A DNA stretch of 64,000 nt from Escherichia coli (GTDB lineage Bacteria > Pseudomonadota > Gammaproteobacteria > Enterobacterales > Enterobacteriaceae), in assembly GCF_030013595.1 (NCBI RefSeq), contig NZ_CP122768.1, one strand, 5' to 3'. Under the pieces are notes generated by a model. It saw only the letters and a list, made by a program, of their open reading frames with translations, was not told the origin of the DNA and ran no database searches. Positions 20,194 through 20,604 of the stretch are shown piece by piece; within the stretch, counting starts at the first letter, position 1; each line of letters begins with the position of its first letter. The translations under genes and the position numbers were made by a program.

Positions 20194-20319
20194 CGTGTTT
20201 TACCTCATTAATCCGGCGTATTCCGGTGATAAATACGGTAAAACAGGGCAGGGCGGGAAAAACAGTACCCACCGTTTTAAAACGGTACCCACTGTTTTTT
20301 ATCTCATTGATTTCGCTTT

Positions 20320-20357
20320 CTTTTTGCAAAAAAATAGCGACCGCAAGGGCCGCTATT
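20320..20357 (-). terminator. Rho-independent terminator after the int-orf80 unit
   Basis: AATAGCGGCC...GGTCGCTATT hairpin followed by TTTTTTT on the minus strand. Confidence 0.5.
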
Positions 20358-20361
20358 GTGA

Positions 20362-20604
20362 TTACCGCTTCCACTTCTTAGGTCGCCCACCGCATTTAAG
20401 GCTGGTGGGTCTCAGCACCTTGTCGATGCTTTCAGCCAGATTTTTCGATGCGCCACGCGAGCGCAAAAAACTGACTACCTCGTGTTTTGTGGGGGCTGTT
20501 GATTTGTCTTCCGGATCGTACGTTGACCAGAATTCACGATTTGCCATTAAGGCCAACTGAAGACCTTCACCATAGGCAGGGGATACCTTTTCATTGAAAA
20601 ACAC
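20362..20604 (-). CDS. Hypothetical protein (80 aa, GTG start) with basic C-terminal tail
   Basis: AAGGAG ribosome-binding site 8 nt upstream of the GTG; located between int and alpA. Confidence 0.45.
   Translation of the reverse strand: MFFNEKVSPAYGEGLQLALMANREFWSTYDPEDKSTAPTKHEVVSFLRSRGASKNLAESIDKVLRPTSLKCGGRPKKWKR

Follow-up and report, generated by a model that had tools for sequence, protein, structure and literature searches.

The gap between the integrase gene int and alpA, the gene of an AlpA-family regulator, holds in one phage-inducible chromosomal island (PICI) of Escherichia coli a small gene of its own, ORF80, and a pair of 20-bp repeats. Both lie in the window analysed here, a stretch of 64,000 nucleotides of the chromosome (RefSeq assembly GCF_030013595.1, contig NZ_CP122768.1). 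The reading proposed, to which the sequence evidence lends about an even chance, is that the product of ORF80 binds the repeats and gates the alpA promoter, the gene and the repeats together making up a regulator-operator cassette. The evidence for it comes from the conservation of both parts, and from related islands, in which the array of repeats in front of alpA goes with the C-terminal class of the protein encoded in the int-alpA gap and tracks neither AlpA nor the protein's N-terminal domains. All the island genes discussed are on the minus strand, with int as the first gene, and the features described below lie on this strand unless otherwise stated.

ORF80 and its apparent transcription unit

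An earlier note on this DNA had described, between int and alpA, an 80-aa open reading frame (ORF) with a GTG start, a good ribosome-binding site, a basic tail and its own terminator, and this description holds in all its parts. ORF80, also called X, extends over 20362–20604 with the GTG at 20604; a Shine-Dalgarno sequence, AAGGAG (20613–20618, read from the sequence), stands 8 nt before the GTG, and the product ends in the basic tail GGRPKKWKR. The extent of the gene has been annotated in different ways: in strain cq9, where the region is identical, RefSeq gives 61 aa from an internal ATG, and in relatives it gives 80 or 76 aa, with an ATG in one lineage where the window has GTG. In 36 of 36 distinct variants an in-frame start lies 10–13 codons 5' of the conserved (E/D)GLQLAL, the N-terminus of about 10–12 residues being hypervariable, and by this comparison the long, 80-aa form is the right one. 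Between the window and the related island L023 the gene shows 10 synonymous and no non-synonymous differences; the ratio of non-synonymous to synonymous differences per site (pN/pS) is 0.15–0.25, and the corresponding ratio of substitution rates (dN/dS) is 0.11–0.16 among type B genes, where synonymous sites are unsaturated. Between island types, pS of the X gene reaches 0.75–0.85 and pN about 0.18. Because dN/dS is low and the synonymous differences stand at 10 against none of the other kind, ORF80 is, to judge from its sequence, a real gene under strong purifying selection.

The gene also appears to be transcribed on its own. A candidate promoter, P_X, has a perfect −10 hexamer TATAAT (20668–20673) and no good −35; GTATAAT is invariant in 29 of 29 distinct upstream variants, and the sequence 3' of it, which forms the 5' leader, diverges. 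Within the 116-nt gap that separates the int stop codon (20721) from the ORF80 start (20604), and directly after that stop codon, there is an A-rich block, CTGTACAAAAAACCAGTAAAAGC (20698–20720), which is conserved in all island types, including L006 with its differing flanks, and which is a candidate UP-like element of the ORF80 promoter. At the other end, the terminator scan finds the intrinsic terminator T1 (20326–20357, or 20333–20357 when delimited more narrowly), AATAGCGGCCCTTGCGGTCGCTATT followed by T7, with a 10-bp stem and a 5-nt loop. At the position of T1, islands of type B and L006 carry a hairpin of unrelated sequence, GCGGCAGAAATGCCGC-T7; the sequence has thus been swapped and the position kept, and terminator function has therefore been retained while the sequence changes. 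Given the invariant TATAAT 5' and the terminator 3', ORF80 looks like an autonomous, constitutive-looking transcription unit. A plus-strand ORF of 121 aa that covers 20195–20560 was discarded as a mechanical ORF, as it overlaps conserved minus-strand features.

The X domain

The earlier note had recommended a homology search with the 80-aa protein. ORF80 turns out to carry, on its own, an uncharacterised domain of about 60 aa (the X domain), which an exhaustive profile search finds at the C-terminal end of 633 proteins (E ≤ 1e-3; representative library). These proteins have a median length of 220 aa, mostly 190–280 aa, and between the end of the domain and their C-terminus there are 2 residues in the median. 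Its pattern, (E/D)GL..., W-x-x-(Y/F)-D..., T-A-P..., L-R-P, is one to which ORF80 aligns across the whole core. The N-terminal regions that precede the domain (n = 121) fall into several unrelated families, with 96 members in one, then 7, 5 and 2, and singletons.

Other searches returned less. A word-indexed homology search gave 13 clusters only, all but one labelled E. coli; the exception, P0013 (90 aa, "AlpA family", from an assembly of the nematode Cooperia oncophora), is a fusion by deletion of the N-terminal half of X with the C-terminal half of AlpA, and was set aside as bacterial contamination. A scan of the genome collection with the X-domain alignment found only 3 loci, tblastn found no match to ORF80 in 50,697 phage records, and Pfam, PHROG, NCBIfam and PADLOC gave no family match for ORF80 or its long-form relatives. 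There is no significant match to ORF80 or the X domain in the Protein Data Bank (PDB), and the profile matches to designed ankyrin repeats found there are spurious, as they fall on the DPxD..TAP stretch.

The AlphaFold2 model of ORF80 (predicted local distance difference test score 77.6) has helices at residues 12–26, 40–49, 54–64 and 67–70, followed by a disordered basic tail, and the three main predicted helices bear a weak resemblance to three-helix bundles of the helix-turn-helix (HTH) kind. The tail GGRPKKWKR resembles an AT-hook at the level of the motif, in its G-R-P core with basic flanks; it is predicted to be disordered, and relatives of the diverged X2 class described below are without it.

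The repeat element upstream of alpA

The duplicated motif around a central palindrome that had been noticed upstream of alpA is indeed present, in the form of two tandem 20-bp units. Unit 1, distal from alpA, is AAAACAGTGGGTACCGTTTT (20279–20298; plus-strand form AAAACGGTACCCACTGTTTT) and unit 2, proximal to alpA, is AAAACGGTGGGTACTGTTTT (20259–20278; plus-strand form AAAACAGTACCCACCGTTTT). The two are 90% identical and directly abutting direct repeats, each with the layout A-tract, GTGGGTAC, T-tract, and at their junction arises a perfect 16-bp palindrome, ACCGTTTTAAAACGGT (20271–20286, on neither strand in particular), which is imperfect in type B islands (ACCGTTTAAAAACGGT). The repeat as first written down, GTACCCAC(C/T)GTTTT, is the reverse complement of AAAAC(G/A)GTGGGTAC. 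A degenerate pattern of the 20-mer has only two zero-mismatch matches in the 64-kb window, both of them here; with up to 3 mismatches it has 9 matches where 3.04 are expected, and 0 of 100 shuffles reach 9.

The repeat region was aligned among fifty satellites from the IMG/VR collection and E. coli genomes, which provide 19–29 distinct versions. Unit 2 is the best-conserved site: in 19 distinct sequences AAAAnGGT on one flank and ACTGTTTTT on the other show no variation, apart from the n (C29), which is nearly constant, and of the four bases at its centre only two vary (GGGT, GAGT, GGGA, TGGT). Unit 1 is degenerate, with variation in its core and left arm (GGGT, GAGT, GGAT, GCCC, TATA, GTAT, TCTA), and in the natural variants L061 and L067 it is exactly deleted. 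Downstream of unit 2 follows a second invariant block, TTTACCGTATTTATCACCGGAATACGCCGGAT (20211–20242), conserved in types A, B and L006 with the pattern TTTACCGTATTTnTCACCGGAATA..CCGGAT; the spacer between the two measures 14 nt in L006 and 15 in types A and B, its length being kept and its sequence not. Synonymous divergence between island types is pS 0.52–0.58 in alpA, beside the still higher values of X given above, and because unit 2 and the downstream block are invariant while the synonymous sites of the flanking genes are 52–85% diverged, both can be regarded, on this comparison, as selected regulatory DNA.

The TTTACCGTATTTATCACCGGAATACGCCGGAT block contains two candidate −10 hexamers, TACCGT (20235–20240) and TATTTA, as well as a CCGG/CCGG 5' stem-loop, and it is likely to hold the transcription start region of alpA. 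The candidate promoter has no −35 element. If TACCGT is taken as the −10, the centre of unit 2 would lie at about −40.5 to −41.5 and that of unit 1 at about −60.5 to −61.5.

Repeat arrays and the class of the slot protein

Unit 2 contains a motif, GGTGGGTA(C), that recurs in other genera. In the intergenic regions between X and alpA of 13 lineages, k-mers of the form AA(A/G)nGGTGGGTA(C/T) are enriched: TGGGTA occurs in 9 of the 13 (null mean 1.8), GGTGGG in 8 (1.1), AAGGGTG in 7 (0.40) and GTGGGTA in 6 (0.38). The sites are laid out as direct repeats in E. coli and Serratia and as inverted pairs in Kluyvera, Providencia and others. The motif stands beside AlpA proteins of three types, whose mutual identity is 20–31% and whose recognition helices differ, and it is absent from the rest of the island, including a second promoter/operator region at 19415–19505. 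A first test for enrichment of GGGTA, in which loci with and without X were compared, was negative, because four of the loci counted as lacking X carry a diverged X domain below the threshold and because other classes use other motifs. Beside these full sites there are scattered partial ones: an 11-mer, GTACTGTTTTT, common to unit 2 of the window and the int-alpA gap of the related island EcCICFT073, an AGGGTAG inverted repeat in EcCIMP1, and, on the plus strand of the window, an inverted copy of the X1 core, GGGTGGGT (20653–20660), just 3' of the ORF80 TATAAT and near the predicted P_X start. This last copy could be an autoregulatory site; it is missing from most E. coli variants.

A sharper view comes from loci that share one AlpA type. 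In this set, here called the AlpA type-2 set, 80 IMG/VR loci (tblastn, ≥73% identity to the query alignment) reduce to 33 sequence clusters, in which the proteins of the slot between int and alpA belong to different C-terminal classes. Where the slot protein carries the X2 class, a diverged X domain that ends in VACPIKR, arrays of the palindrome ACCCTnAGGGT in 2–4 copies are found at 10 of 10 loci, against 0 of 23 others, and each of the 32 X2 sites falls in the interval from the slot gene to alpA. Where it carries another C-terminal domain, the "O" class, the arrays are of the TTCCAA type (4/4 loci, against 1/29 others). The X1, X2 and O classes all precede the same alpA leader. The N-terminal domains are common to different C-terminal classes, as seen between L145 (X2) and L149 (O), with E = 1e-22, and between L154 (O) and L127 (X1), with E = 8e-40; since these domains are shuffled across the classes, it is the C-terminal domain that the arrays track, and ORF80 has no domain but this one. 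The arrays, then, change with the C-terminal class of the slot protein, and not with AlpA or the N-terminal domains. The X2 class itself comes in two arrangements: six loci (L138, L147, L153, L156, L162 and L205) have two slot genes, with an ORF of 101–185 aa directly 5' of an X2 protein of about 152 aa, and other X2 proteins are single fusions of 264–296 aa, which suggests gene fission or fusion.

The int-alpA slot across genomes

The int-proximal slot had been regarded in the earlier note as a typical place for variable cargo, a view that finds no support, as the place of the family between int and alpA is kept in all the contexts examined. Three E. coli island types, one of them at a different integration site, have the three genes co-oriented in the order int-X-alpA, and so do Salmonella (an 83-aa short form), Providencia (237 aa), Kluyvera (300 aa), Serratia, Sedimenticola and one gammaproteobacterial metagenome-assembled genome. 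In five further IMG/VR loci, checked on the alpA side, X is followed by a co-oriented AlpA gene, so that in every context examined, within Enterobacterales and other Gammaproteobacteria, a co-oriented AlpA gene comes after X. Because of this synteny, ORF80 is best described as a conserved component of the integration/regulation module and not as cargo. The slot ORF EcCIMP1_002 ("UvrB-like", PMC11773190) was considered as a relative and rejected, as the gap in which it lies has no X homologue.

A predicted hairpin in the alpA leader

A second element appears in the leader of alpA. A fold-back hairpin (20194–20247), in which the arm CCTGTTTTACC (20237–20247) pairs with GGTAAAACACG (20194–20204), is predicted to cover the alpA Shine-Dalgarno sequence GAGG (20203–20206), whose predicted accessibility falls below that of controls in which the upstream sequence was shuffled (window, p = 0.023; type B, p = 0.000). 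One pair is compensatory, U-A to A-U, in 9 versus 9 sequences, and the two types are told apart by it without exception. The independent AlpA type-2 set shows predicted sequestration of the Shine-Dalgarno sequence at p < 0.05 in 22 of its 33 leaders, where about 1.7 are expected by chance, and the median probability that it is unpaired is 0.15 versus 0.40. The arms of these hairpins are unrelated to one another (CUCGUAA/UUACGAG, CUCCUGU/ACAGGAG, CCCCCUGU/ACAGGGGG and CUUAGUAUUC/GAAUACUAAG). As −10-like hexamers lie at, or just 5' of, the left arm of the hairpin, we infer a fold-back inhibition that would act on read-through transcripts of alpA.

This arrangement recalls that of the IS10 and IS50 transposase genes, in which transcripts that read through from outside pair an upstream segment with the ribosome-binding site, while transcripts from the gene's own promoter start inside or after the pairing segment. 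The alpA case differs in that its start of transcription is a prediction, so that the native mRNA may or may not include the left arm, and in that the gated gene is the master activator of a satellite, not a transposase.

A model for the control of alpA and its alternatives

Taken together, the features of the int-alpA gap can be arranged in the following scheme. ORF80 would be transcribed alone, from the TATAAT promoter to its own terminator T1, and would supply a minimal X domain, an HTH-like fold of three helices with a basic AT-hook-like tail. The two 20-bp units would be its operators, with one copy of the protein per unit, and ORF80 bound there would gate an activator-dependent alpA promoter, the conserved core of which lies 14–15 bp 3' of unit 2. 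T1 would shield alpA from read-through out of int and ORF80, and the leader hairpin would sequester the alpA Shine-Dalgarno sequence, a fold probably confined to transcripts with a start upstream of the alpA promoter. The gating of alpA would in turn decide whether AlpA is switched on, and with it the island's excision and replication.

The sign of this regulation could be either of two. ORF80 could be a repressor, similar to Stl of the Staphylococcus aureus pathogenicity islands (SaPIs), that a product of the helper phage must remove, a version favoured by the autonomous, constitutive-looking unit beside int, by the multi-site arrays of some lineages and by the modular cassettes. It could also be a positive factor acting from about −41.5 and −61.5, which is favoured by the lack of a −35 together with the positions of the units, and which fits the requirement for the slot gene iolg in the excision of a Vibrio satellite of the PICMI type (phage-inducible chromosomal minimalist island).

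A wider and more tentative proposal, which we regard as rather unlikely, is that the proteins of the int-alpA slot, X and at least one other C-terminal class, are helper-responsive master regulators of many Gram-negative PICIs, in which a swappable N-terminal sensor module for a helper product would be joined to a C-terminal DNA-binding module matched to the operator array, the whole forming an exchangeable specificity cassette comparable to the immunity regions of phages and to Stl of the SaPIs. ORF80 would be the sensor-less version of such a protein, and the translation of alpA would generally be gated by a hairpin.

Several points weigh against the proposal that ORF80 binds the repeats and controls alpA. 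What the sequences show is that the gene is real, that its synteny and its sites are conserved, and that array type co-varies with C-terminal class. We infer DNA binding by ORF80, the position of the alpA promoter, the sign of regulation and the fold-back mechanism; the promoter and start positions are predictions, and the operator geometry and the sign are conjecture. Within the X domain, conservation peaks in an acidic loop, FWSTYDPxD..TAP, and not in the putative recognition helix. A gene and the intergenic DNA next to it are linked, so that the co-variation of arrays with slot proteins could reflect co-inheritance and not recognition, and the X1 motif is less crisp than the X2 and O arrays, with GGTGGG in 1 of the 4 X1 loci of the AlpA type-2 set. 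No X-type sites were found 5' of X in the 11 X1-class and 10 X2-class loci checked. Among 60 related islands there is one (L055) with a truncated X and an intact alpA. Finally, EcCICFT073 and EcCIMP1, which have no slot gene between int and alpA, remain helper-inducible (PMC6092414, PMC11773190), and X is therefore no universal requirement.

The best of the alternatives, although still an unlikely one, is that the repeats are sites for AlpA auto-activation or for an inducer from the helper phage, and that ORF80 is an unrelated neighbour. The first half of this was the proposal of the earlier note, of which the regulatory role of the repeats stands, in view of the invariant proximal unit, while AlpA or a helper product has become a less likely ligand than the product of ORF80. 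Winged-helix proteins of the AlpA/Xis type typically bind tandem direct repeats, which is what the window offers, and with TACCGT as the −10 the dyads would lie at about −41.5 and −61.5 of a promoter that has no −35. It is difficult, however, to reconcile AlpA with the distribution of the sites: the GGTGGGTA-type motif is found 5' of alpA genes from three families, the 20–31% identity and different recognition helices of which were given above; one AlpA type is accompanied by at least three unrelated array classes that track the upstream gene; the motif recurs nowhere else in the island, the 19415–19505 region included; and the regions upstream of alpA in EcCICFT073 and EcCIMP1 are without a full X1 motif of the GGTGGGTA type and have partial look-alikes only. 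With three types of AlpA beside the motif, and no copy of it in the second promoter region of the island, it is improbable that AlpA determines the specificity of the repeats. For related PICIs, auto-activation by AlpA and induction of alpA by helpers have been published (PMC6092414, PMC11773190); both could work by way of other sequences in the alpA upstream region.

More doubtful is the possibility that ORF80 is a recombination accessory that works at the protein level with Int and AlpA in an excision complex and exerts no control over alpA through the repeats. This has a precedent in Vibrio PICMI115, where helper-induced excision requires iolg, the gene between int and alpA (PMC10803314), and other properties of the family agree with it: the X domain is most conserved in a surface loop, which points to a conserved partner protein, the N-terminal domain of the long forms weakly resembles the winged helices of Xis and MerR, and X is intact in 6 of the 60 related islands (L004, L010, L047, L056, L062 and L067) in which alpA is truncated or frameshifted. 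The disruption of alpA in L004 resembles low-complexity assembly junk. An accessory of this kind would leave the change of array with C-terminal class unexplained, there is no X-type motif near the att (attachment-site) arms, and the phenotype of the iolg deletion could also be explained by a loss of alpA induction.

It is less probable still that the 40-nt repeat element acts as RNA, as a second terminator or attenuator which, in addition to T1, would keep transcripts of int and ORF80 from running on into alpA, its conservation being that of a structure. The element can form a long hairpin followed by U5, with a free energy (kcal/mol) of −16.6 for the window (z −2.2), of −27 for L003 (z −6.9) and of −14.2 and −16.9 for other types; the inner hairpin is flagged by the terminator scan, 97.9% of cells are paired across 19 variants, and one position alternates between A-U and G-U, a change tolerated by RNA only. 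Against this, there are 0 compensatory changes in 15 pairs, so that the stems are merely invariant and uninformative on structure; some pairs of unit 1 are lost through changes on one side only, some natural variants have just one unit, and the arrays of other genera, which have no U-runs, consist of direct repeats, of inverted repeats set far apart or of 11-bp palindromes whose one central base would not suffice for a hairpin loop. A role at the RNA level is in any case compatible with protein binding, and the two are not exclusive. Lastly, integrase arm sites are excluded as an explanation of the repeats, as neither att end has a GTGGGTAC-like site in its vicinity and the repeats found there belong to the TATAGCTA type.

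The island and its genomic context

By its gene content, the element that carries ORF80 is an EcCICFT073-type Gram-negative PICI of about 10 kb that adjoins tRNA-Pro. The 861 bases around ORF80 and the repeats are 100% identical to those of strains cq9 and HNSQ2209, and a related segment is present in 146 of 5,426 complete E. coli genomes; downstream of alpA the island differs from that of cq9, despite the identity across the ORF80/repeat region. As in other PICIs, int lies beside att with flanking direct repeats, and co-oriented int and alpA are followed by a primase gene within some 10 kb, with no genes for tail or lysis proteins. The tyrosine integrase gene (20721–21962) is of the P4 type with an Arm-DNA-bind_3 N-terminal domain (Pfam matches Phage_integrase, 94 bits, Phage_int_M and Arm-DNA-bind_3), and tRNA-Pro(GGG) adjoins it at 22172–22248. 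A 26-nt direct repeat at 12047–12072 and 22028–22053 bounds the island, the insertion point of which is after the tRNA-Pro terminator and not within the tRNA. Upstream of int (21975–22060) there are five (G/A)T(A/G)TAGCTA repeats, and these, with the 26-nt repeat common to both ends, are likely integrase-binding and att sequences.

The gene alpA (19987–20193) encodes a 68-aa HTH regulator/excisionase of the AlpA family, with a match to Pfam Phage_AlpA (PF05930; 33.3 bits, gathering cut-off 21, E = 4.5e-8) and to phrog_66, "excisionase and transcriptional regulator". After alpA come an icd-like pseudogene, DUF4222 and a RepA-like helicase-primase (AAA_25, phrog_2850 and phrog_906 matches); the remaining ORFs comprise ProQ/FinO, PerC, fragments of a head-protease-like gene and a TerS-like HTH protein. 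This gene order agrees with that of the early region of EcCICFT073, which serves as the model Gram-negative PICI. The helper dependence of induction, excision and packaging would be expected from the synteny with EcCICFT073.

Several further elements of the island were observed. Adjacent ORFs of 217 and 197 aa at 13845–15156 match separate parts of the 545-position phrog_6216 (DUF2213, head-protease-like) and are probably a disrupted late gene. Just 3' of the helicase-primase gene (16530–16856) there are five TCCTCACTTTTT-like 18-mers, four of them spaced by about 83–141 bp, which resemble the iteron-type origin reported downstream of pri in PICIs. At the far end of the island, 5' of the TerS-like HTH gene (12913–13146), a 39-nt repeat occurs three times, as does TTGACACTTTTT(C/G); these may be packaging or regulatory sites. 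The second operator-like region (19415–19505) has three copies of GTGTAAGACAC/GTGTCTTACAC, including a perfect 11-nt inverted pair 14 nt apart, and promoter-like hexamers on both strands, and it separates the early operon on the minus strand from a divergent plus-strand ORF of 59 aa (19525–19704; phrog_949, function unknown). Between 11900 and 22400 the Rfam search returned no family other than the tRNA, beside sub-threshold chance matches.

Relation to known systems and significance

The island type and the role of alpA were already known. Among Gram-negative PICIs the master activator is alpA, which activates itself and is induced by the helper through an unknown mechanism (PMC6092414), and the literature describes no master repressor for these islands and leaves the switching of alpA by helpers unknown (PMC6092414, PMC10803314). 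EcCICFT073 (Fillol-Salom et al., 2018; PMC6092414) shares with the window int, alpA, the icd-like gene, DUF4222, the primase/helicase, PerC and late genes, all with order and orientation alike. It differs in its 365-bp int-alpA gap without a slot gene, which contains five GAACAAC-like repeats 10 bp apart (L071, 6185–6250), whereas the island of the window has the X gene and GGGTAC repeats; it is also located beside roxA and not beside tRNA-Pro. GACACAA repeats lie nearer alpA in the EcCICFT073 gap.

The closest report to ORF80 is that of iolg and icg in the Vibrio PICMIs, which are likewise small genes of unknown function between int and alpA; iolg has been proposed to be constitutively expressed and to be part of an excision complex (Barcia-Cruz et al., 2024; PMC10803314), and 13 unrelated families of slot genes have been reported in these islands (PMC10803314). 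The arrangement of ORF80 is the "contiguous" one, similar to that of icg. While iolg overlaps int by 1–13 nt, ORF80 is 116 nt from int and has its own promoter-like element and terminator, and no operator arrays or DNA-binding role have been reported for iolg. The other comparison is with Stl of the SaPIs, a gene beside int that is expressed in the quiescent island and has cognate operators at the switch gene, as is proposed here for ORF80; Stl also combines a DNA-binding part with variable parts, as the slot proteins would, and in both cases different alleles would confer different specificities for helpers. ORF80 has no sequence similarity or clear fold similarity to Stl or cI-like repressors and no sensor domain, and Stl is divergent from the genes that it represses, whereas int, ORF80 and alpA are all co-oriented; repression by X is a proposal. 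In the literature searched there is no description of the X-domain family, of the fixed int-X-alpA position, of the match between C-terminal class and array, or of leader hairpins that sequester the alpA Shine-Dalgarno sequence, for which Rfam has no family either.

The int-alpA slot thus offers a concrete candidate for the control of alpA, a conserved and unannotated family in a fixed position, the C-terminal class of which predicts the array upstream of alpA and the N-terminal domains of which are shuffled in the manner of sensor modules. The widespread hairpin that sequesters the Shine-Dalgarno sequence would be a second, previously unreported layer of control on the alpA switch. If the proposed role of ORF80 is correct, it would help in the annotation of satellites, as RefSeq places the start of ORF80 wrongly in cq9, it would give a function to the X domain, present in 633 proteins of the representative library, and it would account for both the specificity of helpers and the silence of alpA in the quiescent island.

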